From an uncultured Bacilli bacterium (lineage in GTDB: Bacteria; Bacillota_I; Bacilli_A; RF39; UBA660), in the NCBI GenBank assembly GCA_944363635.1, contig CALVUP010000007.1, positions 1,666 to 65,665 on the forward strand: a stretch of DNA of 64,000 bases, read 5' to 3'. The notes beneath the pieces were generated by a model, which ran no database searches, was not told the DNA's origin, and saw only the letters and a list, made by a program, of their open reading frames with translations. Positions 2,393 through 62,775 of this stretch are shown in pieces. The position numbers and the translations under genes are program-made. Position 1 is the stretch's first letter, and each line of letters begins with the position of its first letter.

Positions 2393-2425
2393 AAGAGCAA
2401 AGGGCCCGTTGGCCTCTTTTTATTG
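2392..2425 (+). terminator. Rho-independent terminator after queH
   Basis: aaagag..gggcc cgtt ggcc..ctcttttt imperfect hairpin plus T-tract. Confidence 0.5.
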
Positions 2426-2451
2426 CCTTTTTTTTAATTTTGTGGTATAAT
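2423..2451 (+). promoter_or_regulatory. sigmaA promoter of the three-kinase operon
   Basis: ttgcct - 17 nt - tataat with an upstream TGg (extended -10). Confidence 0.6.
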
Positions 2452-2475
2452 ATAGCCGTTTTATAGGAGTTAGGC

Positions 2476-3084
2476 ATGGATAAAATTTATTTTAATAAGG
2501 AAAATATAGAAGCATTAGAGGAATTTGATTCTGGTGGTTATGCGGTTATAAGAAAATATGGTAACGATGCCCTTAAGATTTATAAATCCTCTGAATTTAT
2601 AAATAAAAGAATAACGAATATTCAACGGATTGCTTCTTGTCAAAAAAAACTGGAACGATTGGATGTGATTGTTCCAAAAAAGGAAGTTTATGTGGATGGT
2701 AAATTACAAGGCTATGCAATGAATTTTATCAACGGATTTTCTTTATATGATCTGTATGATTTTAAGCAGTACCATGTAAGTCGATTTACACTAAGTTGTA
2801 AGGTTTTTAAGCTAAAGAGAAATATAGATCGATTATCTGCTTTAGGTTTTTGTATACATGATGATCTTTATTTACGAAATCTCATGTGGGATCATGATCA
2901 GAAACGATTTGTCCTTATCGATATAGATTTTTGGAAACAAACCCATCCACGTAGCTTTCAAGAAAAACTAGAATTGAAAAGAGAAAATTTTTCTGCATTT
3001 AATAAAAATATTAAAACAGATTTATATGAGGGGAATCAGTATGCACAAGCAAGACATCTATTTAAATCAAGAACAACTAAATAA
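2476..3084 (+). CDS. minimal protein-kinase-like fold protein (paralog 1)
   Basis: 202 aa. Gly-rich loop FDSGGYAVIR, Lys in ALKIYK, catalytic loop HDDLYLRN, metal site IDIDFW. Confidence 0.65.
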   Translation: MDKIYFNKENIEALEEFDSGGYAVIRKYGNDALKIYKSSEFINKRITNIQRIASCQKKLERLDVIVPKKEVYVDGKLQGYAMNFINGFSLYDLYDFKQYHVSRFTLSCKVFKLKRNIDRLSALGFCIHDDLYLRNLMWDHDQKRFVLIDIDFWKQTHPRSFQEKLELKRENFSAFNKNIKTDLYEGNQYAQARHLFKSRTTK

Positions 3085-3730
3085 ATTACCTTTTCTTGGA
3101 ATGGGTAAGGATGCTATTGTTTTACAAAAGAACTCTCATTGTGCTCTTAAGATATATCATAAAGCTAAAAAAGTACATAAAAACTCTATAGGTGAAAATG
3201 AAGGTTTAGATAATTTTGGAGTAGTTTTACCAAAAAAGGATGTATATGTGGATGATGTTTTAAAAGGATATTCCATGCCATTTATAAGTGGTTTTAATTT
3301 AAAAGAGTTAGCGATTTATGCTCCTATTACTTGTAAACCCATATTTCAAAGAGCATATCAAAAAGCCCTAAAAGATATTCATCAAATATCTTCTAGAGGA
3401 ATTGTTATGGATGATTTATTGGAAGATAATATTATGTTTGATGAAAATAGAAAAACTTTTAAGTTTATTGATATAGACCAATGGGATTATTCTCATAATT
3501 ATTTTACAGTTTGGATTTGTACAGAGGAAGATGCATATTCTACTCTTGTAACTAAAAAGCAATTGTTCAAAGAAAACGATTCTAGTTTTTTCTTTGATAT
3601 GAATGGGAATCTATATAATTATAGGGTGATTCAATCCTATAAACCATTGCAAGATAAGAAACAAGTTGAAAAGATCAATCAATTGAAATTTTTTGAAGCA
3701 ACACAAAGGATTAAATCAAGTTTAAGATAA
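3041..3730 (+). CDS. minimal protein-kinase-like fold protein (paralog 2)
   Basis: LGMGKDAIVL, ALKIYHK, MDDLLEDN, IDIDQWD. GAGGGGA RBS precedes the ATG at 3041. Overlaps paralog 1 by about 44 nt, suggesting translational coupling. Confidence 0.6.
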   Translation: MHKQDIYLNQEQLNKLPFLGMGKDAIVLQKNSHCALKIYHKAKKVHKNSIGENEGLDNFGVVLPKKDVYVDDVLKGYSMPFISGFNLKELAIYAPITCKPIFQRAYQKALKDIHQISSRGIVMDDLLEDNIMFDENRKTFKFIDIDQWDYSHNYFTVWICTEEDAYSTLVTKKQLFKENDSSFFFDMNGNLYNYRVIQSYKPLQDKKQVEKINQLKFFEATQRIKSSLR

Positions 3731-3753
3731 TTTATAAGTAAGAAGGTGAAAAA

Positions 3754-4302
3754 ATGAACACAATTTGTTATTCTAGTGATCAAATACAACATTTAGAAAA
3801 ATTAGGCAAAGGGGATCGAAGTGTTGTTTATAAAGATCCAAATCGAAACAAAGCCTTAAAAATTTATAAAAAGAATAGTTTATGTTTTTTAGATGATGCT
3901 TTACGATTTGTCAAAAGGAAACAATTAGAGGAATATGATGTAATTATCCCTCAAGGAATTGTTTGTGTTGATGGTGTAAATAAAGGCTACTATAGTGAAA
4001 TTGTTAATGGCTATACAATTCAATATTTAGAAAGTCATACTGCTCTTCCAATTCGTGTTTCAGATTTTGAAAAAGCCTATGAACGAGTTCATAATAATAC
4101 TGTTGGTATTTCACAACTTGGTTATCAATTATGGGATTTACATGAAATGAATTTAATGTATGATATAGATAAAAAAAGAATTATGTTTATAGATGTAGAT
4201 GCGTGGCATAAAAAAAGGAAAAGTCGTAAACTAGAAAATAGGAATTTGTTTGAATTAGAGGCTAGTATTGATTTAGTGAAAATTAAAAAACATTTAATGT
4301 AA
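3754..4302 (+). CDS. minimal protein-kinase-like fold protein (paralog 3)
   Basis: LGKGDRSVVY, ALKIYKK, WDLHEMN, IDVDAWH; AAGGTGA RBS. Confidence 0.65.
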   Translation: MNTICYSSDQIQHLEKLGKGDRSVVYKDPNRNKALKIYKKNSLCFLDDALRFVKRKQLEEYDVIIPQGIVCVDGVNKGYYSEIVNGYTIQYLESHTALPIRVSDFEKAYERVHNNTVGISQLGYQLWDLHEMNLMYDIDKKRIMFIDVDAWHKKRKSRKLENRNLFELEASIDLVKIKKHLM

Positions 4303-4310
4303 AAGTAAAA

Positions 4311-4342
4311 AGAATAAAAGTGGATTTTATTCTTTTCTTTTG
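4311..4342 (+). terminator. Rho-independent terminator after the kinase operon
   Basis: agaataaaa gtgg attttattct followed by tttcttttg. Confidence 0.55.
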
Positions 4343-4364
4343 CTATAATAATTATGGTGATACT

Positions 4365-4862
4365 ATGAAGAATAAAGGATTTACGATGGTTGAATTATTA
4401 GCAACCTTAGTTGTACTTAGTATTATTATGTTAATTGCTGTTCCTAGAGTAACAACGATATTAAGTCAAAACAAAAAACAAACGTTTATCAATGATGCAA
4501 AAAAGTTTATTTCTTTAGCGGAGCAAGAAGCAAGAAGAAGTAGTTATCAGTATGAATGTTATACTTTGAATAATGCGAGTAATCATGGTGCTTGTTATAA
4601 TATAGCAACAACAGACATAGAAACGTCTCCTTACGACGAAAAGTATTTAGAGTCTTCTCGTGTGTTACAATGTTCTGTTGGGGGTATTTATTATTATAAG
4701 GTGTATTTAACGGATGGAAAAATGAGTATTGAAGGGGCTTCTAAAGTAGCTAGTAAAGATAAAGCTTTGGTTGGTGAATTTACAGACATTAATGAAAACA
4801 GTGATAAAAAATATGATTTGGTAACTGAGTATAATTCTAATTATACGGTTACATGTAATTAG
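4365..4862 (+). CDS. prepilin-type N-terminal cleavage/methylation protein (ComGC/pseudopilin-like)
   Basis: MKNKG|FTMVELLATLVVLSIIMLIAVP class III signal with E at +5. C-terminal Cys pair. The track's 4320 start includes non-coding leader. Confidence 0.8.
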   Translation: MKNKGFTMVELLATLVVLSIIMLIAVPRVTTILSQNKKQTFINDAKKFISLAEQEARRSSYQYECYTLNNASNHGACYNIATTDIETSPYDEKYLESSRVLQCSVGGIYYYKVYLTDGKMSIEGASKVASKDKALVGEFTDINENSDKKYDLVTEYNSNYTVTCN

Positions 4863-4872
4863 AGGTGGTTTT

Positions 4873-5433
4873 GTGACAAAAAAAGGATTTACTTTAATAG
4901 AGTTATTAGCGGTTGTTGCTGTGCTTGGTCTTATTGCTTTAATTGCAGTTCCTAGTACAATGAATGTACTGGATAAAAATAAAAAAGAAGCTTTTATCAA
5001 TGATGCTAAAAAAATTATGCGTAGAGTTGAAGTAGAAGATCAAAAAAATGATTATCAAAATAAAATGTTTGTTGTGAATAATAAAAAACCGTCTGGGACT
5101 GTAACAACTCCAAATTATTACAATTATATTACTATGGATGATATCACAGTTTCTTCTTATGATAATGATTATAAATATCTTGTTGTTTATGCCTGTATGG
5201 CACCAGAAGAATATAATTCGATTCGCTATTATCGTATTTATTTAAATGATGGAGAATATCATTTAAGAGCTGTTAAAGGACTTCCTTCAAATCTTTTAAA
5301 TAATGATGTTTTAATGTATAATGTGGGAAACGAACCGTTTGATTTAAGTGATAGTAGTGTTAATCGTTATAAAATGGTGGAACAAGTTGGCGGTAATATC
5401 AATACTTATATGAGTTGTTATCGTTTTCGTTAA
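4873..5433 (+). CDS. prepilin-type pilin-like protein
   Basis: GTG start after GAGGTGG; MTKKG|FTLIELLAVVAVLGLIALIAVP. Confidence 0.8.
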   Translation: MTKKGFTLIELLAVVAVLGLIALIAVPSTMNVLDKNKKEAFINDAKKIMRRVEVEDQKNDYQNKMFVVNNKKPSGTVTTPNYYNYITMDDITVSSYDNDYKYLVVYACMAPEEYNSIRYYRIYLNDGEYHLRAVKGLPSNLLNNDVLMYNVGNEPFDLSDSSVNRYKMVEQVGGNINTYMSCYRFR

Positions 5434-5531: not shown

Positions 5532-6077
5532 ATGAAATTAAATAAAAAAGGTTTTACTTTGATCGAATTATTAGCGGTTATTGTTATTTTAGGTGTTATT
5601 ATGTTAATTGCAATACCAAGTGTATCTAAGATCATTGCAAGTTCAAGGGAAAATACTTTTAGATCAACGGCTCAAACTTTAATATCAGGAGCTAGAAATA
5701 TGGTTTTAGCTTCCGCAGATGGTAGACCATCTGGTGATGGATGGACACAAGTTGCAAAGACTACTACTGTGAACGGCCATTCACTAGATAATATGGATTA
5801 CATCATTAAAATAGAAAAGATTCCTGTAGAGAGTGGTTCTCATACAAAAAGTCCATTTGGCGTTGATTATAATCAAGAATACAGTTTTGTAATTGCTATT
5901 GCTGATGATGAAGGAAATTATGACTATTATATTCAAATGGTAGATGCAAATAAGAATCATTTGCTATTGACGCCTGAAGATGAGTTGGATATTACTAGTA
6001 TAAATGGTGAAGATGCTTATAATAGTACTAATCAGAATAACCTTACTACTTTTACAAACCTAACAACAGCTAGTTAA
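5532..6077 (+). CDS. prepilin-type pilin-like protein
   Basis: MKLNKKG|FTLIELLAVIVILGVIMLIAIP; GGGAGGA RBS. Confidence 0.8.
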   Translation: MKLNKKGFTLIELLAVIVILGVIMLIAIPSVSKIIASSRENTFRSTAQTLISGARNMVLASADGRPSGDGWTQVAKTTTVNGHSLDNMDYIIKIEKIPVESGSHTKSPFGVDYNQEYSFVIAIADDEGNYDYYIQMVDANKNHLLLTPEDELDITSINGEDAYNSTNQNNLTTFTNLTTAS

Positions 6078-6087
6078 TAGAAATAAT

Positions 6088-6116
6088 AAAAGCTTGGCGA
6101 CAAGCTTTTTTCTTTT
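6088..6116 (+). terminator. Rho-independent terminator
   Basis: aaagcttg gcga caagcttttttc. Confidence 0.65.
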
Positions 6117-7339: not shown

Positions 7340-9373
7340 ATGAGTAGACTTTTAACCAAAAAGAAAGTAGAATTTCAGTTTGTTCTTGTTGCTTTTATTA
7401 TGGTTTTTTTGTTTGTATTTATTCTTTATAAAATATTTAGTATGACGGTATTAAAAAGTGAATCTTATCATGCTTTGTTGGAATCACTTACAAATGTTTA
7501 TATGAATACAACTTCTTCTCCAAGAGGAAGAATTTATGATCGGAATTATAAGTTGTTGGTAGATAATAAAGCGGTGAATACGATTTATTATAAAAGAATG
7601 AAAAATACTTCTATTATGGATGAAGTTGAAGTAGCTTATCGATTAAGTGCGGTTATTGATTTGGAATATGAGAAAATTTCTGAAAGGAATTTAAAGGAAT
7701 TTTATTATTTGATTCATAAGGAAGAAGTAGATCAAAAGGTTACTTTAAAGGAAGAGGAAAAGGTAAAAACGAGGGAGCTTACCACGGATGATTTATACAA
7801 TTTAAAAATAGCTCGTATTACGGAGGAAGAGTTAAATGCGATGAGTCAGGAAGATAAGAAAAGTGCTTATCTGTATTATTTGATGAATAAGGGATATTCT
7901 TACGATAATAAAGTGATTAAAAGCCATGTCAGTGATAAAGAATATGCTTATCTTGCGGAGCATAATGATTTGTTTCCTGGTTTTTATGTAGATATTTCAT
8001 GGGAAAGAGAGTATTTATATGGAGATGTTTTTAAAACGATGCTTGGAAGTGTAGGAGAAATTCCAAAAGAAGAGAAAGATTTGTATTTAAAAGCAGGATA
8101 TGATTTATCGGATGTTGTTGGGCTTTCTTATATTGAACAGGAATATGAAGAGTATTTAAAAGGAGAAAAAGCGAAGTATAAAATTTTATCGGATGGTACT
8201 TTAAAACTCGTTGAAGAAGGGAAAAGAGGGAATGATCTTGTTTTAAATATTGATATTGAACTGCAAAAAAAAGTAGAAGAGATTTTGGATGAAGAGATTA
8301 TTAAAACTAAAAGTCAGATGAACACTAAATATTATGATAAGAGTTTTGTGGTTGTAGAGGATCCAAGCAATGGAGAAGTACTGGCTATGGCTGGACGTAA
8401 AGCGATTAAAGAAAATGGGGAATATAAGACTATTGATTTTACTTCGGGGATTTTAACTAATCCTATGACTGTAGGATCTGTAGTCAAAGGAGCTTCTATA
8501 TTGGTGGGTTATAATCAAAAAGCAATTGATATTGGGGACTTTTTTTATGATTCTTGTATTAAGGTGAAAGCAACGACTCAAAAGTGCAGTTGGAAAAACT
8601 TAGGTAGAATTAATGATATTGAAGCTTTAGCTATGTCTTCAAATGTGTATCAGTTTAAAACAGCAATGAAAGTAGCAGGATATAATTATTCTTATAATAT
8701 GGCTTTTCAGGTTGATCAAAGTGTGTTTGATCTATATCGTAACATGTATCATTCTTTTGGCCTTGGTGTAAAGACCGGGATTGATCTTCCATTAGAGTCT
8801 TTAGGCTATTCGGGACTTGATAATCAATCGGGATTATTACTTGATTTTGTCATGGGGCAATATGAAACGTATACACCTATTCAGCTATCGCAGTATATTT
8901 CGACTCTTGCGAATAAAGGCACAAGGTATGCACCAAGACTTTTAAAAGAAGTTCATAAATCAACCAATAGTAGTCAGTTATCCGATCTTTTGTATAAAAG
9001 CGAAAAAGAAGAATTGAATCAGGTATCAAGTGAAGAAAAATACATCAACCGTGTTCATGAGGGCTTTTATGCTGTTATGCATGCAAGTTATGGAATTGGG
9101 CATGATTATATTGATGAAAAGTATGATCCTGCAGGAAAAACAGGGACTTCCCAAAGCTTTTTAGATACAAATTTAGATGGCATTATTGATACAGAAACGA
9201 TTTCTACAGCTTTTATTGGTTTTGCGCCATTTGATGATCCTAAAATGACAATCACGGTGACTTCTCCGGATATTTCTTATGAAAAAAGTCGTTATGCGTA
9301 TACCGCAAATACAACAAAACGCATTTCTAAAAAAGTAAGTGATTTATATTTTTCTTTGTATCCGAATTCTTAA
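7340..9373 (+). CDS. class B penicillin-binding protein (transpeptidase)
   Basis: N-terminal TM segment; SVVK (SxxK), SSN and KTGT motifs in the correct order. Confidence 0.85.
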   Translation: MSRLLTKKKVEFQFVLVAFIMVFLFVFILYKIFSMTVLKSESYHALLESLTNVYMNTTSSPRGRIYDRNYKLLVDNKAVNTIYYKRMKNTSIMDEVEVAYRLSAVIDLEYEKISERNLKEFYYLIHKEEVDQKVTLKEEEKVKTRELTTDDLYNLKIARITEEELNAMSQEDKKSAYLYYLMNKGYSYDNKVIKSHVSDKEYAYLAEHNDLFPGFYVDISWEREYLYGDVFKTMLGSVGEIPKEEKDLYLKAGYDLSDVVGLSYIEQEYEEYLKGEKAKYKILSDGTLKLVEEGKRGNDLVLNIDIELQKKVEEILDEEIIKTKSQMNTKYYDKSFVVVEDPSNGEVLAMAGRKAIKENGEYKTIDFTSGILTNPMTVGSVVKGASILVGYNQKAIDIGDFFYDSCIKVKATTQKCSWKNLGRINDIEALAMSSNVYQFKTAMKVAGYNYSYNMAFQVDQSVFDLYRNMYHSFGLGVKTGIDLPLESLGYSGLDNQSGLLLDFVMGQYETYTPIQLSQYISTLANKGTRYAPRLLKEVHKSTNSSQLSDLLYKSEKEELNQVSSEEKYINRVHEGFYAVMHASYGIGHDYIDEKYDPAGKTGTSQSFLDTNLDGIIDTETISTAFIGFAPFDDPKMTITVTSPDISYEKSRYAYTANTTKRISKKVSDLYFSLYPNS

Positions 9374-9839: not shown

Positions 9840-11166
9840 TTATATTACAGTAACCCAACTTACAAGATATATTAAATATCGAATCGATAACGATCGAAAT
9901 TTAAATCAGGTGTATTTAAAAGGGGAAATTTCAAATTTTAAAGCACATTCAAAAGGACACTTTTATTTTACAATAAAAGATGAAAATGCTAGAATTAATG
10001 CGATTATGTTTGCATCAAGTGCGAAAAAGGTTTTGTTTTTACCGACTGATGGTATGAAGATTTTAGTAAAGGGAAGAATTAGTGTTTTTGAAGCTAGTGG
10101 AAATTATCAAATCTATGTAGAAGAAATGTTAGAAGATGGACTTGGTAATTTACATATTGCTTTTGAACAATTAAAAGAAAAACTTTCTAAAGAAGGATTG
10201 TTTGATGAAGCACATAAAAAGAAAGTCCCTAAAATTCCAAGTCGGATTGGGGTTATTACTGCTCCTACTGGAGCAGCGATTAAAGATATTTTATCGACAA
10301 TTAAAAGACGTTTTCCTATTTGTGAAGTGATTTTATTTCCTTCTTTGGTACAAGGAGAAAACGCGAAAGAGGATCTTGTAAAAAATATCCGCCTTGCAGA
10401 TTCTTATGGACTGGATACCATCATTTTAGGACGCGGTGGTGGATCGATTGAGGATTTATGGGCTTTTAATGAAGAAGTCGTTGCACGTGCGATTTATGAA
10501 GCAAAAACACCTATTATTTCCGCTGTTGGACATGAAATTGATTTTACCATTAGTGATTTTGTTGCGGATTTACGTGCTGAAACGCCAACAGGAGCAGCAG
10601 AACGAGCAGTACCGAATTTAATTGATGTGATTAATTATATTAATCAACTTCATATTCGTATGAATCAAAGCATTCATAATTTATTAGAGTCTTACTCTTT
10701 ACGACTTAACAAAATAACGGAAAGTTATGCATTAAAAAATCCAATGCGTATTTATGAACTTAAAGAACAAAGATTAGATATGTCTATAGATAAACTAACA
10801 ACTTATATTACGCATTTGATTTTAATAAAAATGCAAAAGTTAAAAAATATTACCGATAAATTTATTTTATTAAACCCAATGCATGCTTGTGATTTAAAAA
10901 GTAAAGAAGTAAAAACCAATGTAGAAAGACTTAATCATTTTATGAAAAACTATCTCTATAAAAAAGAATCTATTTTAGATAAGATGATTTCTAAAATTGA
11001 ATTATTAAACCCAATGCAATCTTTAAAAAGAGGTTATGCAATTGTGAAAAAAGAAGATAAATGTATCAGTAATATTCATGATCTAAAAAAAGGAGATGTT
11101 TTGCATATTTTAATGCAGAATGGAACCGTTCAAACAAATGTAATTGAGGTGATGAAAGATGATTAA
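9832..11166 (+). CDS. xseA: exodeoxyribonuclease VII large subunit
   Basis: OB-fold N-terminus ([17 protein letters not shown]) and XseA core ([16 protein letters not shown]). ATG at 9832 follows a GAGGA RBS. Confidence 0.85.
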
Positions 11167-14373: not shown

Positions 14374-15354
14374 ATGAATTTTAAAAACAAACTACTTAAT
14401 CTCCTTCTATTTACATTATTTATAATACCCAATTTTGTATTTGCTTATTCCAATCAAGTAGTACTTGGTGGAGATTCAATTGGAATTGAAGTAAAATCTA
14501 CATATATTACAATTGTAGGTTTTTATAAAGTTGAAAACAAGTATATTGCCAAAGAAGCAGGATTCCAAATAGGAGATAAAGTTCTAAAAGTAAATGGCGA
14601 AGAAATTGATGATATTCATGACATGACCAATAGTATTCAAGAAAAGAATAACACAATAACCGTTCTTCGAGATGAAAAGGAAAAAGATATAAAATTAAAT
14701 TTAGTAAAAGATGATGCTGGTGTATATAAAACAGGTCTTTATGTAAAAGACAAAATATCCGGTATTGGCACATTAACCTATATTGATCCAGGCAATAATG
14801 TTTTTGGCGCTTTAGGACATGAAATTAGTGAATCTTCTACCCTTGAAAAAGTAGAGATAAAAGACGGGAAGATATTTTATTCAAATATTACAGGAATTAA
14901 GAAGAGTTCCGGTGGAAACCCCGGTGAAAAAAACGCCACCTTCAATAGTAATGATATTTTTGGTACCATTAAAGCTAATGAAGTAAGTGGTATTTTTGGT
15001 CACTACCAAAAGGAATATGATGAAAGTAATTTAATAGAAGTTGCAGAAGAAACCGAAGTTCACGAAGGAAAAGCTTATATAAGAACCGTCGTTGACAAAA
15101 ATAAAATAGAAGAATTTGAGATTAATATTACAAAAATAAATGCAGATAGTGGTGTTAAAAACATTTTATTTGAAGTAACCGATGAAGAATTGCTAGAGAA
15201 AACAAGTGGAATTGTAAGTGGAATGAGTGGCTCACCAATTATTCAGGATGATAAATTGGTCGCAGCTGTTACGCATGTTGTTGTATCCGATCCTATGAAA
15301 GGATATGGTATATTTATTACAACAATGTTAGAAGAAGGAGATAAAAATAGTTAG
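14374..15354 (+). CDS. SpoIVB-family serine peptidase (S55)
   Basis: Signal/TM segment, PDZ-like segment, and GALGHEI and GMSGSPI catalytic motifs characteristic of SpoIVB. Confidence 0.75.
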   Translation: MNFKNKLLNLLLFTLFIIPNFVFAYSNQVVLGGDSIGIEVKSTYITIVGFYKVENKYIAKEAGFQIGDKVLKVNGEEIDDIHDMTNSIQEKNNTITVLRDEKEKDIKLNLVKDDAGVYKTGLYVKDKISGIGTLTYIDPGNNVFGALGHEISESSTLEKVEIKDGKIFYSNITGIKKSSGGNPGEKNATFNSNDIFGTIKANEVSGIFGHYQKEYDESNLIEVAEETEVHEGKAYIRTVVDKNKIEEFEINITKINADSGVKNILFEVTDEELLEKTSGIVSGMSGSPIIQDDKLVAAVTHVVVSDPMKGYGIFITTMLEEGDKNS

Positions 15355-17897: not shown

Positions 17898-19025
17898 ATG
17901 AAAAAGAAGAATCAAAAGGGATTTACGCTTGTTGAGTTAATGGGTGTTATTCTTATACTTGGCATTGTTTTATTAATTGCAATACCAGCAGTTACGAAGT
18001 TTCTAGGAAAAAGTAAAGATCAATATTATGAGACAACGATTGATAATATTGAGAGTGCAACCGAAGAATTTTTAATGGATTATAATGAATTGGTACCTCC
18101 TGCGAAAGATGGAGGAACAGTTTATGAAAAATCAGTAACGGAGTTTTATTTAAAAAACTTGGTAGATTTAAAATATATTGATTCTGTAGAGGATCCAAAT
18201 ACACATGCATCTTGTGATGAAGAAAGCTATGTTGTTGTAACCAATACGGGATATGATGCACAATATAGTTCGGATAAAGAGGCCTTACAAGGAGCCAATC
18301 AAAATTTAGAAATTGATGTTTGTTTAAAATGCGGAGATGAGACCATTAATGATCATAATTCAAAGTGCTCAACTGTACAAAAGCATTATGCCTTTGTAGA
18401 TAATAATACAGAAGAGCCTATTTCAACTTTAAAGATTAATGCGGGCAGATATTATCCGAGAATAAAAAATTTTATGAATAATACAATATCGGCACCTTCC
18501 TCTTTATATACTTCAAATAAGAATATGGTTGCAATAAATGGAAATATGCTTACTATTTCTAATGGTTCCGAAAAATCTTTTATTTATACAACTTATCGAG
18601 AGCAAGTAAACGGAAAGTATAACCATTATATTATTCCTTTATTTATTGATGTGATAGATGAGCTTGTTTTACCAGAAAAAATTGTTGCTCAAAGTGACAA
18701 TCTTATGGTTTATAGTGGAAAATCAAATGGAAGTGTCTCTTTTGATGTTTATCCTTATAATGCCAAGTTATGGCAAAATTTACGATGTGCCATTATTAAT
18801 AAAAACGAAAATAATGAAGTCTATCAACCAGAGAGTAAGACGTATTATGGAAGTGTGAATTATAATTTAAATAGTAATGGTGGCTTTTCTTGTAAATTAA
18901 AAAATTTTTATTTCTCTTCTGCTTCCATTGCAACCAAAGATAAAACGGATACTTATATTCGTGCGCAATCTATTAATCCTTCTAATTTGTATGTTGATAT
19001 ACCAATTTATAATTATTATGGGTGA
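17898..19025 (+). CDS. large prepilin-type protein (375 aa) with ComGC-like core and extended C-terminal domain
   Basis: MKKKNQKG|FTLVELMGVILILGIVLLIAIPAV; multiple Cys in the C-terminal domain. Confidence 0.75.
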   Translation: MKKKNQKGFTLVELMGVILILGIVLLIAIPAVTKFLGKSKDQYYETTIDNIESATEEFLMDYNELVPPAKDGGTVYEKSVTEFYLKNLVDLKYIDSVEDPNTHASCDEESYVVVTNTGYDAQYSSDKEALQGANQNLEIDVCLKCGDETINDHNSKCSTVQKHYAFVDNNTEEPISTLKINAGRYYPRIKNFMNNTISAPSSLYTSNKNMVAINGNMLTISNGSEKSFIYTTYREQVNGKYNHYIIPLFIDVIDELVLPEKIVAQSDNLMVYSGKSNGSVSFDVYPYNAKLWQNLRCAIINKNENNEVYQPESKTYYGSVNYNLNSNGGFSCKLKNFYFSSASIATKDKTDTYIRAQSINPSNLYVDIPIYNYYG

Positions 19026-25039: not shown

Positions 25040-25087
25040 GTTTTAAAATAATTATAGTAATAATAGGAGTACTGATAGGTGAAGAAA

Positions 25088-26992
25088 ATGAAAAAAAATA
25101 AAAAAGGGTTTAGCTTAGTTGAATTGTTAGTTGTTATTGCTATTATTGGTGTTTTACTTTTGATTTCTTTTCCTTTAATTAATCATTTGGTGGCGAGAAA
25201 TAATAAAAGTAAATATGATGCTTATCGAGATATGGTTGAAGAAGCAACAAAAATCTATATGGATGAGCTAGGATTTAAGATATCGGGATGTTATTCTTTA
25301 TCGGCAAGTGAATTACAAGCACAAGGGCTTCTTAGTAATTTTTCGGAACAAGATTTAGATGCGGATGTTTTTATTTATACGGATGAAGAAGGGAATATAG
25401 ATGATATAAAAATTAACATTTATGATGAATCTTTGGAAGATCCATCTACATGCAATGAAAGTGGTTTTGGAGAGTGTGAAATTGTAGATTGGAATGAAAT
25501 ACTCGCATGTAAATATGAAATCGTACAAGATCAAAGTGCTTATGGACAAAATGCAGACTTTTCTGGAGCGAATGCTCCAAGATTAAAAGAAAAGATGATT
25601 CCTGTAAAATATGATGGAGAAAATTGGGTAGTCGCAGATGTAAATAATTATAAATATTCATATGTCTTTGAGGAAGATTATTCTTGGTATAATTATAATG
25701 ATGGTTATTGGGCTAATGCAATTTATGTAAAAGAGGATGCCTATTCAAAGTATGTTACAAATGGTGAGTTTACTATGCAAAAGATTGTGAGTGAGGATGA
25801 TGTATTATCATGGTGGGTATGGATTCCAAGGTTTGCTTATAAACGTGATAATCGTGATTATCTTATAGAGTTTTTAAAGGATACGGATTCAAATGTATCA
25901 AGCGGGTATCAAATCGCAGAAGCTTTTGTTGACCCAGATTATAATAGTGATGCTACAAACGAAGAACTTGATAAAAAGTATTCTGAAGATTATGGCTTTT
26001 GGGTAGGAAAATATGAGCTTGGAAAAGAAGGAGATACCTATGTTGTAAAACAACAAGATGATGCTTCTAATTATCTTACGAAGCAAACAGCGACGGAATT
26101 TATAAATGCGGGTACTCAAATCACAGGAGCACATACCATTCGTAACAAAGAATGGAATACAGTCACATTATTATCTTTATCTAAATATGGGAGTGAAGAT
26201 TCTTCGTCTGAATATACGACAGATAATAATAGCGGGGTTTATAATATGGCATCAAATGTAGAGTTTACGGCAGGAAATTTAAGAGGACTTACCAATTTTA
26301 ATATTAAAGTTACTTGTGAAAATAGTTGTAATGATAATGGAGAATCTGTAGTTACAGCTGAAGAAACGACAGTAAATACTTCTGGCTCAACAAGTGGTTG
26401 GCTTTTTCGCCCTTATGATAAAAAGAATTATTGTAATCCAAATGCTTATGATAAAAATACGGCTGTAACTGCTTGTTTGTTAATCGTAATGGATGGAGGA
26501 ATTCCTACATTAATTACCGATAATGATGTAGATATATATAATATGAATTATCATTGGTATGCATCAGGTAGTATTCTGGATTCTTATACTTGTGATACGA
26601 ATTTTTGTGTTTATGGTCCAAATGGTAGTACAATTAAGTCACCAAATAAAGTAGACAGTGATGCATTTTTAACTTATAGTAGTTTTAGATCTGGTTATCC
26701 AAGATTTTCACTTACTTATAATGACGATGGTACTTGGACACGAAAAACAACAGCAGTTTCTGGTCAGGTGACAAATGCTTATTTATGGACTTTCCGAGGA
26801 AATAATAATATTTCTTCTACAAGTTACTATGATGATATTACGATTGATTATGATGAAATGATGGAAAAATTAAATAATACTTGCCAGCCACAACTTACTT
26901 GTACAGAAGAAGATAAAAAGACAACAACGAAAACGGTTTATCAATCTTCTTATACTGAGTATGATGCTAGAACTCGAGTAGTAATTCGTTAA
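25088..26992 (+). CDS. large modular prepilin-type protein (637 aa), paralog A
   Basis: MKKNKKG|FSLVELLVVIAIIGVLLLISFPLINHL class III signal and a roughly 590-aa Cys/Thr-rich C-terminal domain. AGGTGA RBS. Confidence 0.75.
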   Translation: MKKNKKGFSLVELLVVIAIIGVLLLISFPLINHLVARNNKSKYDAYRDMVEEATKIYMDELGFKISGCYSLSASELQAQGLLSNFSEQDLDADVFIYTDEEGNIDDIKINIYDESLEDPSTCNESGFGECEIVDWNEILACKYEIVQDQSAYGQNADFSGANAPRLKEKMIPVKYDGENWVVADVNNYKYSYVFEEDYSWYNYNDGYWANAIYVKEDAYSKYVTNGEFTMQKIVSEDDVLSWWVWIPRFAYKRDNRDYLIEFLKDTDSNVSSGYQIAEAFVDPDYNSDATNEELDKKYSEDYGFWVGKYELGKEGDTYVVKQQDDASNYLTKQTATEFINAGTQITGAHTIRNKEWNTVTLLSLSKYGSEDSSSEYTTDNNSGVYNMASNVEFTAGNLRGLTNFNIKVTCENSCNDNGESVVTAEETTVNTSGSTSGWLFRPYDKKNYCNPNAYDKNTAVTACLLIVMDGGIPTLITDNDVDIYNMNYHWYASGSILDSYTCDTNFCVYGPNGSTIKSPNKVDSDAFLTYSSFRSGYPRFSLTYNDDGTWTRKTTAVSGQVTNAYLWTFRGNNNISSTSYYDDITIDYDEMMEKLNNTCQPQLTCTEEDKKTTTKTVYQSSYTEYDARTRVVIR

Positions 26993-27978: not shown

Positions 27979-28002
27979 AAATTCATAATAGGAGTGTGTA
28001 GC

Positions 28003-29733
28003 ATGAATAAAAAAGGATTTAGCTTAATTGAATTGTTAGTTGTTATTGCTATTATTGGTGTTTTACTTTTGATTTCTTTTCCTTTAATTAATCATCTCGT
28101 CGAAAAAAATAACGAACAGAAATATAATGCTTATCGGGGAGTTATACGCGAGGCGGCTAAGGTGTATATAGATGAACTTGGTTTTTTAATGTCTGGTTGT
28201 TATGAGATTAAAGATGGTGATAAAACAGGTTTTGAAGTGTTAGAAGAGGCTGGATTGCTTACGAATATAGAGGACGATTGTACGGGTACACGAGTTTATA
28301 TATTAATGAATAGTGAAGGAAAGCCTACAGATTATAAAGTGAATTTAATATGTAATGGCAAGGCGATTGGCAAACAAGAATATATCGAGAAAAAATGTGA
28401 ATATGAAGTAGTACAGTATAAAGATGCATTTAATTCCAATGTTGATCCGAATGTTAATTCTCCAGAACTAAATGCAAAAATGATTCCTATAAAGTATTAT
28501 AGGAAAGATAATACAGCACAATGGATTGTGGCAGATGAAAACAATCTTAAAACTTCTTCCGTATTTGAGGAGGATTATGCTTGGTATCTTTATAATCAAG
28601 ATTATTTAGCGAATGCAGTTTATGTTAATGAAGATGCTTATTCAAAATATGTACAAGATGGTAAGTTCCAAGTAGGCACAAAGCTTGATGAGGAAGATGT
28701 TACAAGCTGGTGGGTATGGATTCCAAGATTTGAGTATAATAATACGGATATTCATTATCTTATAAATACACGTAAGGCAATGAAGGAGGGATATAAGGTT
28801 CATCCGGCTTTTACAACTACACAGCAAACAGGAAAGAAAGAATTAACTGGTTTTTGGATAAATAAAAATATTAATTTAAAGTCAGCTGTTGATGAAAATG
28901 GAAGTATTGTAGGGGATGATATGCATAGTATTCAAGAATATTTGGATTATGGTATTGACTTTTCTAAAGAAAACCAGTCTCATGTAACACGCGATTTGGA
29001 ATTTAATGCGGCTTACTTAATTAATTCTGATAATGAGACTAAAATTAATGATATGGATCAAGTTCAGTTTACAGGTGGAAATTATGGAGGAGGAAGCGCC
29101 TATCGCTTTAATAATGCTATAGCAAATATTTATTATATTGGTTCCTCAGGATCTAAAGGAGAGATTATTACAGAATGTAAGTGGGATCATTACGATGGCT
29201 TGCGTTTAACGACATATTATGATTGCAGTAACAATTGGAAGATTTGTGCTTTAAAAACAAATGAAGATTATATGGAAGGAAATATTTCAAAATGTGTAGA
29301 GGGTAGATGTACAAAAGTACTCAAAATGCGCTTAAAAGCTTCTCCTAATGGTGTGGTTTCTTTTACAAATGATGAAAAATCAAGTTTGTGGTACAAATAT
29401 ATTGATATTTATGATGACTATGTAAAAAATCAAATGTATATTGACGATTTGTGTTCTAAAACTGATTTTAATGCTTCGTCTTCAGCTAGTTTTCAATCTC
29501 CTTGGACATTTCGAAAATCAGATTATAACGAGGTGGTTCATAGTGCATCTTATAGTGTCACCTATAATTTTTCGTCTTTGTATAGTCAATTAAATAAAGA
29601 GTTTCTTGCTAGTAATAATATAGGGCATACAACGAATATGACAGGCAAAACAGTTAAAATATCGGCTACACTAGGTACAAATCCTTTGGATCGTGTGTTT
29701 TCTTACGGTACAAGGCTTTCTATGTATTATTAA
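28003..29733 (+). CDS. large modular prepilin-type protein (579 aa), paralog B
   Basis: MNKKG|FSLIELLVVIAIIGVLLLISFPLINHL. Shares the SWWVWIPRF-Y block and an identical 68-nt 5' segment with paralog A. AGGAGTG RBS. Confidence 0.75.
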   Translation: MNKKGFSLIELLVVIAIIGVLLLISFPLINHLVEKNNEQKYNAYRGVIREAAKVYIDELGFLMSGCYEIKDGDKTGFEVLEEAGLLTNIEDDCTGTRVYILMNSEGKPTDYKVNLICNGKAIGKQEYIEKKCEYEVVQYKDAFNSNVDPNVNSPELNAKMIPIKYYRKDNTAQWIVADENNLKTSSVFEEDYAWYLYNQDYLANAVYVNEDAYSKYVQDGKFQVGTKLDEEDVTSWWVWIPRFEYNNTDIHYLINTRKAMKEGYKVHPAFTTTQQTGKKELTGFWINKNINLKSAVDENGSIVGDDMHSIQEYLDYGIDFSKENQSHVTRDLEFNAAYLINSDNETKINDMDQVQFTGGNYGGGSAYRFNNAIANIYYIGSSGSKGEIITECKWDHYDGLRLTTYYDCSNNWKICALKTNEDYMEGNISKCVEGRCTKVLKMRLKASPNGVVSFTNDEKSSLWYKYIDIYDDYVKNQMYIDDLCSKTDFNASSSASFQSPWTFRKSDYNEVVHSASYSVTYNFSSLYSQLNKEFLASNNIGHTTNMTGKTVKISATLGTNPLDRVFSYGTRLSMYY

Positions 29734-32772: not shown

Positions 32773-33765
32773 ATGAACAATAAAAATTTAATGTTAAGAC
32801 AAATGATGATAATATCTGATATGGTTCCATATATGAAAAGAAAAAATATTAAATTTGAAAAATGCTCAGAGAAAGACGCTGAAATATATTTGAGAGAAAA
32901 TAATAATTATTATAATGTAACATCTTATAAAAATAATTTTGTTAAATATCAGTGTGGTAAACAACAAGGAAAGTACATAGATTTGGATTTTGCATATTTA
33001 AAAGATTTATCTATTATAGATTATAGGACTAGATTAGTACTATTTAAAATGATCATTGATATAGAACATTATTTAAAAATAAGAATATTAAATACCATAG
33101 AAGATATAGTAGATGAAGATGGTTATAAAATTGTTAATCTATATTTAGAAAAAGATTTTTATGATGAAAAATGGCCTAAAAGAGTACATGAAAGTATCAG
33201 AAAAAAAGTTACAAATGAATATTATCAAAAAATATTTTCTAAATATGACTTAGATAAAGATACTAAAATAGAAAATATACCAATTTGGGAATTTCTTGAG
33301 ATAATAACTTTTGGAGAGCTGATTAATTTTTTTGCGTTTTTTACTAAGTATTATCAATTGGAAGATAATCAATATATATTTATTTTAAGGGAAGTAAATA
33401 AACTTAGAAATGCAGTAGCACATAATTCTTGTGTACTATCTGAATTAGCTAAAAAGGATAATACACATAGAGCTGATACATTAGTTATTCATTATTTGAA
33501 AGATTGTGGAATAGGAAAGGAAAATAGAAATACTAAACTTTCTAATTCAAGAATAAGACAAATTACATATACTTTGTATATGTTTAATATTATAGTAAGT
33601 AGTGAAGGTGTAAAAAATAATGTTAAACATGATATTACAAAATTATTTTATGAAAGAATAATTTTGAATAGAAAGTACTACAATAATAATGAACTATTGA
33701 AATCCATATATAATTATTTTGATAAAATTATCAAAAAAAATTATAAAGAAAATTCGGATCAATAG
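32773..33765 (+). CDS. Abi_2 family abortive-infection protein (AbiD/AbiD1/AbiF-like)
   Basis: 330 aa. N-terminal NNYYNVTSYK matches the family's YYRxSxY motif; ITFGELINFF; LRNAVAHNS (RNxxAH). About 20% GC; GGAGG RBS. Confidence 0.72.
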   Translation: MNNKNLMLRQMMIISDMVPYMKRKNIKFEKCSEKDAEIYLRENNNYYNVTSYKNNFVKYQCGKQQGKYIDLDFAYLKDLSIIDYRTRLVLFKMIIDIEHYLKIRILNTIEDIVDEDGYKIVNLYLEKDFYDEKWPKRVHESIRKKVTNEYYQKIFSKYDLDKDTKIENIPIWEFLEIITFGELINFFAFFTKYYQLEDNQYIFILREVNKLRNAVAHNSCVLSELAKKDNTHRADTLVIHYLKDCGIGKENRNTKLSNSRIRQITYTLYMFNIIVSSEGVKNNVKHDITKLFYERIILNRKYYNNNELLKSIYNYFDKIIKKNYKENSDQ

Positions 33766-42414: not shown

Positions 42415-42491
42415 GGACCCTTAGCTCAGTTGGTTAGAGCATCCGGCTCATAACCGGGCGGTCATAGGTTCAAGTCCTATAGGGTCCACCA
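42415..42491 (+). tRNA. tRNA-Met (anticodon CAT; elongator type, could be tRNA-Ile2 if lysidinylated)
   Basis: Cloverleaf: acceptor GGACCCT/AGGGTCC, anticodon loop cuCAUaa, TPsiC GGTTCAAGTCC, encoded CCA, 1:72 G:C pair. Confidence 0.9.
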
Positions 42492-42498
42492 TTTTTAT

Positions 42499-42583
42499 GC
42501 GGGTATGGCGGAATTGGCAAACGCACTAGACTTAGGATCTAGCGGGGCAACCCTTGCAGGTTCAACTCCTGTTACCCGCACCA
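42499..42583 (+). tRNA. tRNA-Leu (anticodon TAG)
   Basis: Acceptor GCGGGTA/TACCCGC, anticodon loop cuUAGga, long variable arm, encoded CCA. Confidence 0.9.
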
Positions 42584-49180: not shown

Positions 49181-50158
49181 ATGAAAAAAAGAATCAAATT
49201 AAAAACCAAACAAAAGAAGGCAAGTAAGAAAAAGAAATTTGTTATTTATAGTAGTATTACCTTTTTAGTCGCTTCTTTTATTCTTACTTTAAATACTTTA
49301 AAGTTTAAAATCTCTTTAGGGAGTGATGAATTGATTCAATACATATTATATTCTTCGAATCATAATATGGAATATGAATATGATAAGAAAAACATTAGTA
49401 AAAAAATTGTTGAATTTTTGACGAATATTACTTTGGATAATCCAAGTAGCATACTTTCTAGTAATTATCGAAATTTAACCGATGAAGAAGAAAGTTTGAA
49501 TAGTGAATATATAGAGGATCCTTATCCAGATAAAAAAATTGATGAACCTCTTGTCTATATCTATAACACGCATCAATTAGAAGAATATTCATCTAAAAAC
49601 TATGAAGAATATAATGTAACACCTAATGTATTAATGGCTTCTTATATATTCAGAGAAAAATTAAACCGCTTGTCTATTCCTACGATTGTAGAAGAGACGG
49701 ATGTAAATGAAATCTTAAAAATCAATTCGTGGAAGTATTATAAAAGTTATGATGTGACCAGGATGTTGCTTGAACAGGCTAAAGAGGATTATTCTTCGCT
49801 AGAATATTTTATTGATTTGCATAGAGATTCTGTTTCTCATGATAAAACTTATGTCAAAATTGATGGAAAAGCTTACGCAAAAGTTTTATTTATTGTAGGA
49901 TTGGAAAATAAGAATTATAAAGAAAATTTGGAATTTACAGAGGGGTTTAATGATTTGATTCACGAGAAATATCCGGGTTTATCTAGAGGAATTTATAAAA
50001 AGCAAGGCGAAGGGGTCAATGGTGTTTATAATCAGGATTTAGATAAACATGTTATTTTGATTGAACTGGGAGGGGTTGATAATACGATAGAGGAAGTAAC
50101 CAACACCATTGATGCTTTATGTGATGTATTATTTGAATATATTGGAGGTGGACAGTGA
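49181..50158 (+). CDS. stage II sporulation protein P-like
   Basis: N-terminal TM segment; YIYNTHQLEEY and DLHRDS blocks typical of SpoIIP; followed by a yqxA-like gene and lepA as in Bacillus. Confidence 0.7.
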   Translation: MKKRIKLKTKQKKASKKKKFVIYSSITFLVASFILTLNTLKFKISLGSDELIQYILYSSNHNMEYEYDKKNISKKIVEFLTNITLDNPSSILSSNYRNLTDEEESLNSEYIEDPYPDKKIDEPLVYIYNTHQLEEYSSKNYEEYNVTPNVLMASYIFREKLNRLSIPTIVEETDVNEILKINSWKYYKSYDVTRMLLEQAKEDYSSLEYFIDLHRDSVSHDKTYVKIDGKAYAKVLFIVGLENKNYKENLEFTEGFNDLIHEKYPGLSRGIYKKQGEGVNGVYNQDLDKHVILIELGGVDNTIEEVTNTIDALCDVLFEYIGGGQ

Positions 50159-57696: not shown

Positions 57697-58470
57697 ATGA
57701 AAACAAAGAATAAAGGGTTTACTTTGATTGAACTTGTTTTAGGGCTTTCTTTAATCGTACTTATCATTTTACCTGTATTTGGGGTTGTGATTAGTTATAA
57801 AAATAAAGAAATTATGGAGGCCAATAAAGCAGATTTAACAAGTTTTAAAAATCGAGTCTTAACAACTATAGAATCGGATATTGTAGAAAAGGGTGTACAA
57901 TATACTTGCGAATATATTCATAAGATATCGGATACGGATTATTTAGTAGAAAATAATACACAACGTATTATGTTTCGTGATCATACGTATGCTGATTTAA
58001 CGATTGACCATGAGCAAAAAAGTATTATCTATACAACGTATGATGAAGAAAATAAAAAAATTGATGAGCAGACTTTTGTTCTTCCGGTTCAAGATGCTGT
58101 ATTGGAAAATGCAAGTTATATTCGTGGAGAAGAAGGACATGGGACAGGAATCAGTGGATATGATTATTTTTATATTTTTCCGCCCAATGAGATTCAATTA
58201 AAAAAATATACAGATGGTAAGACGCATTACGAAAATGATATAGCCGTTTTAGACAATAATTCTACGGTATTGAAAATTTTTCTTCCTATTACTTATGAAG
58301 GAGATGATTATAGTATTGTAATTACAACTACTTTTACTTATGAAGTTGATAGTCCATCTTGTGGAGCGAATACAGAGAATGGAAATTATTGTCCTTATAG
58401 TAATAAGAACAGTTATGTTGTTTCAGATGATGGTTTTACTTGTACCAATAATTTTTTATCCTCTCGTTAA
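57697..58470 (+). CDS. prepilin-type protein (257 aa)
   Basis: MKTKNKG|FTLIELVLGLSLIVLIILPV class III signal. Confidence 0.7.
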   Translation: MKTKNKGFTLIELVLGLSLIVLIILPVFGVVISYKNKEIMEANKADLTSFKNRVLTTIESDIVEKGVQYTCEYIHKISDTDYLVENNTQRIMFRDHTYADLTIDHEQKSIIYTTYDEENKKIDEQTFVLPVQDAVLENASYIRGEEGHGTGISGYDYFYIFPPNEIQLKKYTDGKTHYENDIAVLDNNSTVLKIFLPITYEGDDYSIVITTTFTYEVDSPSCGANTENGNYCPYSNKNSYVVSDDGFTCTNNFLSSR

Positions 58471-62203: not shown

Positions 62204-62420
62204 GAGAAATGCATTGAGTAAGAAGTAGTAATAAAAGGAAATTTTATAGAGAATTAGTGGTTGGTGAAAACTAATAATGGAATTTTATGAATTCATCTTA
62301 CTAGCAGAATAATGAAAAGTTATTCCGGGGTATTCCGTTACAATGAATGAGATAAATGCTTGCATTTATAAAATAAGGTGGTACCACGAAAGATTCGTCC
62401 TTTGGATGAGTCTTTTTTTG
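62204..62420 (+). promoter_or_regulatory. T-box leader (tRNA-sensing riboswitch), probably Phe-specific
   Basis: Stem I with GA/AGAGA motif. Conserved T-box sequence aaggtggtaccacg at 62375-62388 overlaps the terminator gattcgtcc uuu ggatgagtc plus U-tract. A possible UUC specifier lies in gaauucau. Confidence 0.65.
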
Positions 62421-62442: not shown

Positions 62443-62775
62443 ATGCTTCGTAATCAAAATAGGTATTTTAATAATGAGGAGCAATTACAACTGTTGAATC
62501 GCTTGTGTTCTGTAAATGAGAAATATGGACGATATACATATATGTCTGAGTTTTATAGGATTTGTGATGCTTATTTTTCTTTATTACAACAGGCACAAGA
62601 AGAAATGCAAAATGTGTTTGATGAAAAAAAGGCTTTGGTGTTTTATCAGAGTGTTTGTTCTACACTTATTGATAAAGATAAACAAAATATAGCTTATGAT
62701 ATGACAATGAGTTTGTTTGAAAATACCGATTATGTAAAGCAAAAAATATTACGAAACCAGAAAAGAAATCAATAG
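62443..62775 (+). CDS. hypothetical 110-aa protein downstream of the T-box
   Basis: Strong AAGGGAGG RBS; no motif. Confidence 0.5.
   Translation: MLRNQNRYFNNEEQLQLLNRLCSVNEKYGRYTYMSEFYRICDAYFSLLQQAQEEMQNVFDEKKALVFYQSVCSTLIDKDKQNIAYDMTMSLFENTDYVKQKILRNQKRNQ

Follow-up and report, generated by a model that had tools for sequence, protein, structure and literature searches.

The kinases NleH1, NleH2 and OspG are type III secretion effectors of enteropathogenic and enterohaemorrhagic Escherichia coli (EPEC/EHEC), Citrobacter and Shigella. To our knowledge, minimal kinases of this type are so far known as virulence effectors that are injected by Gram-negative enteric pathogens. The NleH family consists of minimal Ser/Thr kinases with the glycine of the Gly-rich loop, the invariant lysine, the catalytic aspartate and asparagine, and a PID motif (PMC8386410). 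OspG autophosphorylates although it lacks subdomains VIII–XI (PMC12756638), and NleH1/2 are reported to act on a bacterial protein as well, CesT, which they phosphorylate (PMC13081723). Here a tandem array of three genes, K1, K2 and K3, is described from a stretch of 64,000 nucleotides (the window) of an uncultured Bacilli bacterium (assembly GCA_944363635.1, contig CALVUP010000007.1, positions 1,666 to 65,665), with a GC content of 30%. Sequence comparison places the encoded proteins in the protein-kinase-like (PKL) superfamily, as a new variant at the level of a family and a sister of NleH/OspG, and the genomic behaviour of the array is unusual.

The three genes lie consecutively on the plus strand. 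K1 (2476–3084) encodes 202 amino acids (aa) and has a ribosome-binding site, GGAG, at 2466–2469. K2 (3041–3730) encodes 229 aa, has the ribosome-binding site GAGGGG at 3028–3033 and overlaps K1 by 44 nt, while K3 (3754–4302) encodes 182 aa. The overlap, as translational coupling, suggests that the products may form complexes. Three consecutive open reading frames (ORFs) of these lengths had been proposed in the sequence-only reading, an earlier reading by a model of the letters of this stretch, and they are present as proposed. An in-frame ATG for K2 is found further upstream at 3026 and would give a protein of 234 aa if used; the start given here is the one called in the loci L001 and L016. 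K2 has a C-terminal extension of ~75 aa, with a comparable extension in L008_a / P0012. The catalytic residues of K1 are K34, D130, N135 and D149 (plus D151), and its Gly-rich loop, DSGGYAVIR, is atypical. K3 represents a conserved type of paralog, the 'core' type, and its motifs LGKGxxSVVY, ALKIYK, WDLHEMN and FIDVDAW are canonical. Each motif quoted in the sequence-only reading can be located, but the Gly-rich loops had been listed in reverse gene order, FDSGGYAVIR being the loop of the 202 aa protein and LGKGDRSVVY that of the 182 aa protein. K1, K2 and K3 are true paralogs with similarity far above chance. They are diverged, as had been said, with a pairwise identity in BLASTP of 30–34% (E 1e-21, 5e-21 and 3e-17), against an earlier estimate of 25–30%. 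Searching the whole 64 kb window with the hidden Markov model (HMM) of the family found no copy besides these three.

An AlphaFold (AF2) model built from an alignment of 42 sequences (A2) has a mean predicted local distance difference test score (pLDDT) of 91 and a predicted template modelling score (pTM) of 0.87. It replaced a run from the three-paralog alignment, for which the pLDDT was 47. Foldseek returned 1907 PDB matches at E<=1e-3, and every one of the 50 listed is a protein kinase or a protein resembling one; the matches in the viral structure library (BFVD) are kinases too. The top match among those listed is Bud32 (8k20_B, E 1.7e-8), then LIMK1, JAK, IRAK4 and RIO2. The modelled fold has a full N-lobe with the Gly-rich loop and the β3 lysine, a catalytic loop of the form D-x4-N, and a metal-binding aspartate in I-D-x-D-x-W. 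The kinase domain begins at residue 1, and D149 is followed in the model by ~50 residues forming two helices, with no activation segment, APE motif or G-H-I subdomain. A protein-kinase fold, and with it a place in the PKL superfamily, is thereby confirmed at the level of the model, in agreement with the original assignment; a non-kinase fold did not emerge from the structure comparison.

The motif residues are also conserved among the relatives. In an hmmalign alignment of 168 sequences (K1 numbering throughout), K34 is present in 99%, D130 in 98%, N135 in 92%, D149 in 98% and D151 in 88%. Further conserved positions are G20 (92%), Y26 (89%), P67 (99%), G79 (96%), Y80 (93%) and N171 (90%). This set spans the Gly-rich loop, the β3 lysine, the catalytic aspartate and asparagine and the equivalent of the DFG aspartate, together with residues that are specific to the family.

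The best match of the A2 profile among all PDB sequences is NleH1 (4lrj, E 1.4e-13, 53.9 bits). NleH2 (4lrk, 4.6e-11, 45.7 bits) and 4o96, a type III effector kinase (6.1e-11, 45.3 bits), are also matched, as is OspG (4q5e, 8e-6, 28.6 bits). The next best other kinase is CaMK1G (6.6e-7, 32.1 bits), after which come CK2, a PknB-like kinase (~2e-6) and RIO2. NleH1 therefore leads the other kinases by ~20 bits, and the three-paralog profile also ranks it first (1.5e-5). By profile, the closest characterised relatives are specifically the NleH/OspG effector kinases and not the Bud32, RIO, Kdo-kinase and YrbL types with which the proteins had been compared in size; the 'minimal kinase' size class of that comparison is borne out at ~180–230 aa. 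The window proteins share with NleH/OspG the N-lobe, the D-x4-N loop, the (P/F)ID metal-binding aspartate and the lack of subdomains VIII–XI (PMC12756638; PMC8386410), and the kinase domains are of similar size, at ~170 aa. They differ in having no N-terminal secretion or targeting region, in being encoded in chromosomal tandem arrays, and in a signature of invariant P67, G79-Y80, N171 and IDxDxW (FID/LID) that replaces PID. Their host is a Gram-positive spore-former in which, judging from its taxonomy, a type III secretion system would be absent. K1–K3 have no match to the Pfam model OspG_kinase (PF22303) at E<=10, and K2 reaches 17.4 bits against NCBIfam NF041316 (NleH), for which the cutoff is 450. 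The window family is thus a distant sister of NleH/OspG and not a member, because the curated thresholds are not reached while the profile matches NleH1 at 1.4e-13, and because the proteins have no N-terminal secretion region and come from a Gram-positive organism. Hanks-type kinases (PF00069, PknB/PrkC) share GxGxxxxVY, A-x-K, D-x4-N and the metal-binding aspartate, but the window family lacks their activation segment, APE motif, αG–αI helices and sensor or PASTA domains, and K1–K3 have no match to Pkinase (PF00069).

When 1.84 billion representative proteins were searched exhaustively with HMMER and the profile of the three paralogs, 438 relatives were identified at E<=1e-3, of which 57 reach E<=1e-10 and five reach E<=1e-30. 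Source names sought for them by cluster look-up included no named protein. A word-indexed homolog search returned K1 alone for the K1 query and four proteins for the 42-sequence profile, and scans with single proteins found one genome locus (GTDB) and one metagenome locus. Among the 42 members of the alignment, five match Pfam Pkinase (best 6.9e-8), three OspG_kinase (best 3e-5) and three Kinase-PolyVal. The sub-threshold matches of single sequences are all to kinases, these being Kdo, choline kinase, APH, NleH, XopAU and Bud32 in Pfam and NCBIfam, and RSK, CK2 and DAPK among the PDB chains. As judged from these searches, the family is unannotated and belongs to low-GC gut Bacilli. No curated family or named homolog exists for K1–K3, in support of the earlier statement that no characterised system like the array is known.

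Within this broader low-GC Bacilli family, the array linked to queH is specific to one genus-level clade. Distant members are found elsewhere: L020 after ftsH, L014 among unknown genes, L013 as a second tandem pair, and the L015 member between cysS/Zn-peptidase and the mrnC-rlmB-sigH region. The contexts of the distant members L013, L014, L015, L020 and L021 gave no functional clue. A tblastn search with K3 of phage and plasmid collections found no homolog.

The family is present at the same place, directly after queH, in six further lineages, and all of the array ORFs of these match the family HMM. The arrays encode proteins of 202, 227 and 184 aa in L016, 190, 197 and 184 aa in L017/L018, 203 and 182 aa in L012, 216, 204, 192 and 158/164 aa in L008–L011, and 204, 359, 209, 194 and 369 aa in L007, in each case followed by pilin genes. 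The L004/L005 array (192 and 211 aa) is followed by hisS, with no pilins. The term 'triplicated', which had been used of the array, fits the three genes of the window but not the other lineages, which hold two to five. The last copy in L008–L011 is truncated relative to a 196 aa relative. In L007, the 369 aa protein (10001–11110) joins an active-type kinase to a C-terminal pseudokinase domain with N135S, D149N and D151H, and the 359 aa protein (7600–8679) joins a kinase to an unrelated C-terminal half of ~170 aa, in which no resemblance to the family could be detected. Of the 23 array copies, 21 have the complete tetrad of K34, D130, N135 and D149, and K1–K3 are among these.

Between genomes, the array members are only 23–43% identical, the K3 type excepted. 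K3-type identity to the window is 64% in L012, 61% in L017, 40% in L007 and 34% in L008. The flanks are 74–87% identical to the window (tgt 78–87%, queH 77–84%, nfo 76–82% and the penicillin-binding protein (PBP) gene 74–79%), and the pilins are intermediate at 44–68%. A neighbour-joining tree is star-like, with a K3-type clade that takes in L016, L012, L017, L007 and possibly L008, one more small clade, and the other copies on long lineage-specific branches. The most variable segments of the proteins are the αC helix (41–50), residues 91–100, the post-DFG segment (151–160) and the C-terminal helices. An explanation of the copies as decaying junk paralogs was rejected, the tetrad being kept in 21 of 23 copies at 23–43% identity. 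Taken together, these comparisons show birth-and-death evolution of the array, with two to five genes, a kinase-pseudokinase fusion, pseudogenisation, truncations and recombinational exchange, in which one conserved paralog type (K3) coexists with accessory paralogs that turn over quickly.

Substitution rates were estimated by the Nei-Gojobori method for one genome pair, the window and its close relative L016. The rate at synonymous sites (dS) is 0.044 for K1, 0.155 for K2 and 0.16 for K3, and the ratio of nonsynonymous to synonymous rates (dN/dS) is 0.70, 0.38 and 0.09, respectively. For the housekeeping flanks dS is 0.3–0.74 and dN/dS 0.03–0.17. In a sliding comparison of nucleotide identity with L016, K1 is at 96–98% and K3 at 95–96%, against a background of 86–92% and pilins at 83–87%. 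Because the dS of the array (0.04–0.16) is far below that of the flanks (0.3–0.74), this implies that in this pair the array is younger than its flanks, probably through recent recombinational exchange of the cassette. The ratios from this one pair also suggest that K3 is under purifying selection and that K1 is relaxed or diversifying. The strain variants of K1 cluster in its Gly-rich loop (F17I, S19F/Y, G20C, G21N, V24I, I25V, R26K and Y28C), a pattern that rests on a handful of variants.

By analogy with NleH/OspG, it is on balance probable that K1–K3 are soluble, cytoplasmic and active minimal Ser/Thr protein kinases with diversifying target surfaces. Each paralog would bind ATP-Mg through K34, N135 and D149, would use D130 as the catalytic base, and would act within the bacterial cytoplasm, both by autophosphorylation and by phosphorylating protein targets. 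That the tetrad is strictly retained is, like the analogy, consistent with active ATP-dependent Ser/Thr kinases, and this mechanism is favoured because NleH/OspG share the architecture and stay active despite the same deletions. The substrates would be proteins and not small molecules. No signal peptide or hydrophobic segment was found on scanning K1–K3, in which the maximum 19-residue hydropathy is 0.57–0.82 as against 2.72 for a pilin; since a hydrophobic segment is lacking, the proteins are probably cytoplasmic. Catalysis appears to be preserved while the αC helix, the post-hinge and post-DFG segments and the C-terminal helices diverge, and this suggests that it is the recognition of targets or regulators that is diversifying.

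Several observations weigh against this interpretation. No conserved αC glutamate was found as a partner of the β3 lysine, and no acidic αC residue reaches 50% in the family alignment, although this region is the most variable and the alignment is unreliable there. No curated Pfam or NCBIfam model is matched at threshold by K1–K3. I-D-x-D also resembles the motif of the Kdo/WaaP and APH/ChoK kinases, to which K1 has sub-threshold matches. The operon contains no partner gene, such as one for a phosphatase, an FHA domain or a substrate, that would hint at a pathway. K1 may be drifting toward a pseudokinase, because it already departs from the family consensus in its Gly-rich loop, which is polymorphic as well as atypical and includes G20C. 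Finally, the dN/dS values come from a single genome pair.

The resemblance in the I-D-x-D motif is connected with a different reading, in which the substrates are small molecules or glycans, as they are for kinases of the Kdo kinase/WaaP, APH, choline kinase or CotS types, and the proteins act on a variable surface glycopolymer, a lipid or a xenobiotic. Sequence turnover would then mirror surface chemistry that varies between strains. The I-D-x-D motif is typical of the Kdo/WaaP, APH and choline-kinase families, and the Kdo/WaaP (PF06293) and APH/choline-kinase proteins also resemble the window family in their H/x-D-L-x-x-x-N loop and their length of ~200–270 aa. The sub-threshold matches of K1 are to Kdo, choline kinase, APH and PRK01723. 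Surface-glycan loci often show allele-like divergence and exchange within conserved flanks, as the array does, and genes for a sugar-nucleotide transferase and a GT4 protein are found ~7 kb downstream. The match of K1 to Kdo (PF06293) is at 17.2 bits, however, below the cutoff of 21.3, and covers residues 113–176 only, and that to the Kdo kinase model PRK01723 is at 16.5 bits with a cutoff of 142; K2 and K3 have no Pfam match. The family profile fits NleH/OspG better, by the margin given above, and no Kdo/WaaP or APH structure is present among the 60 profile matches or the 50 Foldseek matches listed. In the model, the C-lobe is too small for the helical substrate-binding insert of APH, ChoK and CotS, the organism has no lipopolysaccharide, and no glycan-synthesis gene is within the operon or directly beside the array. 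This reading is therefore considered unlikely.

The behaviour of the array may also be that of a conflict module, directed against phages or other parasites, in which each of the diversified paralogs would recognise an invader protein of its own and phosphorylate that protein or targets in the host, and the kinase-pseudokinase fusion would serve as a decoy-sensor pair. Kinase-based defence systems exist. The turnover in copy number, the pseudokinase fusion, the truncation, the raised dN/dS of K1 and K2 and the exchange of cassettes in a fixed hotspot would all fit, as would the constitutive promoter of σA type, and the PADLOC models PD-T4-6, mad6 and STK_OB have matches among the more distant relatives. 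K1–K3 themselves have no significant PADLOC match (PD-T4-6, mad6, STK_OB, MkoA; E>=0.0027, and no single stretch above the threshold) and no significant PHROG match, and sensor and effector domains are lacking. Typical defence genes are sporadic, whereas all seven lineages examined carry the array, and the phage and plasmid collections gave no homolog in tblastn. No defence gene is adjacent, the nearest being an Abi_2 (abortive infection-like) gene at 32773–33765 (Pfam E 2e-23), ~28 kb away, which is the sole recognisable defence-type gene noticed in the window. A dedicated conflict module is thus possible but doubtful. Of the readings of role, conflict or adaptation is ranked first, followed by phosphorylation of small molecules or glycans, with pilin modification or a Bud32-like role in tRNA last.

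There is a parallel, by analogy, in the ROP/FIKK kinases of apicomplexans and the tandem kinase-pseudokinases of plants, in which paralog expansion, fusions of active kinases with pseudokinases and rapid divergence of the surface round a conserved catalytic core are likewise found. Homology to these proteins does not extend beyond membership of the kinase superfamily, and the array is bacterial and its products probably cytoplasmic.

K1–K3 form a transcription unit of their own. A hairpin with a T-run, like a terminator that ends queH, was found by consensus scan at 2402–2415 (plus strand) and separates queH from the array. Its fold alone is no better than that of shuffled sequences (z -1.2), and an equivalent hairpin follows queH in L016, L008, L007 and L004. 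The promoter scan identified a promoter of σA type at 2423–2451 (plus strand), where an extended -10 promoter had been proposed, with the -35 hexamer TTGCCT at 2423–2428, TG at 2443–2444 and the -10 hexamer TATAAT at 2446–2451. This TTGCCT-17-TATAAT arrangement has 10 of 12 consensus matches as well as the TG extension, in a scan that overall is not enriched over shuffled sequences. A TGnTATAAT element is present 5' of the array in L016, L012, L008, L007 and L004, while in L017 the first kinase gene starts 7 nt after queH. A terminator had been placed at 4311–4342. It was not detected there by the GC-rich consensus scan, but a strong AT-rich hairpin with a U-tract at 4299–4343 (plus strand; -14.9 kcal/mol, z = -5.6, equalled by none of 200 shuffles) is the likely intrinsic terminator of the array. 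The AT-rich hairpin is kept 3' of the array in three related loci (L016, L012 and L017); the hairpin at this position in L007 is GC-rich. Directly behind the hairpin of the window, TGCTATAAT (4341–4349) lies ahead of the first pilin gene (ATG at 4365) as a TGnTATAAT pilin promoter. The layout of queH terminator, TGnTATAAT, array, hairpin, TGnTATAAT and pilins recurs in related loci. The proposal of an autonomous operon with its own promoter and terminator is supported because these signals are conserved across loci, and not by the consensus scans alone; the arrangement appears to be kept in most of the related genomes.

A kinase of the spore-coat type (CotS/BSK-like) was not adopted as an explanation, in view of the extended -10 promoter of σA type in six loci and of the APH model being below its cutoff. 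Predicted homologs of the SpoIVB peptidase (S55) and SpoIIP, at 14374–15354 and 49181–50158, indicate that this uncultured Bacilli lineage forms endospores.

The position next to queH bears on a further reading, that the proteins are ATPases like Bud32 or RIO that act on RNA or ribonucleoproteins, for example in connection with the tgt/queH queuosine genes, and are not true protein kinases. The array is always directly 3' of queH in the clade. Bud32 (KEOPS) and RIO proteins are small, with a truncated C-lobe, Bud32 heads the Foldseek matches listed, and RIO2 is among the sequence and fold matches listed. These proteins are universal, single-copy and slow-evolving, with the partners Kae1 or the pre-40S particle, whereas the array is lineage-restricted, multi-copy and hypervariable, the opposite of a housekeeping cofactor of tRNA modification. 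The arch_bud32 model gives 12.9 bits against a cutoff of 125. In most lineages the array is set apart from queH by a terminator and has its own promoter, and the surroundings of distant family members are unrelated to queuosine genes, one lying behind ftsH and another close to cysS. A role of this type is highly improbable.

The order of the genes around the array is tgt, a small ORF, queH, K1–K3, three prepilin-type genes, nfo, DUF2624 (on the minus strand), the PBP gene, nusB and xseA. The small ORF (1431–1766, 111 aa) shares an overlap with the end of tgt, and neither Pfam nor NCBIfam gives a match for it. It is variable, at 108 aa in L016, 121 aa in L008 and 212 aa in L004, and is absent from L012 and L007.

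The three pilin-like proteins encoded 3' of the array (4365–4862, 4873–5433 and 5532–6077) carry an N-terminal methylation motif. It had been suggested that the kinases are tied in function to this trio, and they might modify or regulate these type IV pilin-like proteins. The prepilin genes adjoin the array in the window, as they do in all but one of the six other lineages, and the pilins are, at the identities given above, also fast-evolving relative to the flanks. Co-occurrence thus holds in part, but hisS follows the array in L004/L005. Adjacency carries little weight because seven prepilin-type genes with the N-methylation motif GF[TS]LxE are scattered through the 64 kb of the window between housekeeping genes (uvrC/mutL, a xerC-like integrase and others), the remaining four being at 17898–19025, 25079–26992, 27994–29733 and 57697–58470. 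The kinase genes and the pilin genes each have a promoter of their own, and a terminator divides the two sets. The kinases lack a signal peptide and are probably cytoplasmic, whereas the globular domains of pilins are exported, and the number of kinase domains (2–7) does not track the constant three pilins. Modification of the pilins is accordingly very unlikely, and the best guess is that the role of the array is adaptive or related to conflict.

Three of the prepilin-type genes in the window are unusually large, encoding 375, 637 and 579 aa. A pilus assembly ATPase, a platform protein and a prepilin peptidase were not found among the ORFs annotated in the window. In the comparison with L016, divergence is greatest in the 3' part of the third pilin gene (5532–6077), especially 5700–6100, with 71% nucleotide identity where the background is ~89%. 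The dN/dS of this pilin is 0.35 against L016, which is consistent with a surface-exposed, diversifying pilin domain. The pilin trio is closed before nfo by AAAAGCTTGgcgaCAAGCTTTT (6088–6109), a perfect 9 bp palindromic hairpin flanked by A- and T-runs that has a terminator score on both strands. Elsewhere in the window there is a T-box leader at 62205–62405 (Rfam RF00230, 124 bits), directly upstream of a small ORF at 62443–62775 and of pheS at 62792–63847, and there are two adjacent tRNA genes at 42415–42488 and 42499–42580 (Rfam RF00005).

These observations add to the NleH/OspG minimal kinases a sister family from uncultured Gram-positive gut commensals. The diversifying cassette, unrecognised until now and found across the clade, may be a conflict or host-adaptation module based on paralogs, with a conserved K3-type core kinase and accessory kinases and pseudokinases that turn over quickly and would supply specificity of recognition, and may also be a reservoir in Gram-positive commensals closest to NleH/OspG; as a whole this is a speculative proposal and the odds are against it. 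Practical value is limited for now, the organism being uncultured, but the family gives a clear lead to those who study kinase biochemistry or the genomics of microbiomes. Should the proteins prove active, the small repertoire of bacterial Ser/Thr kinases would gain a new class, and there would be a natural series of paralogs in which the substrate specificity of a 180-residue kinase can be studied. A hypervariable, recombining tandem array in which the core is strictly conserved and the surfaces appear to be diversifying is a pattern that usually marks molecular conflict or niche adaptation.

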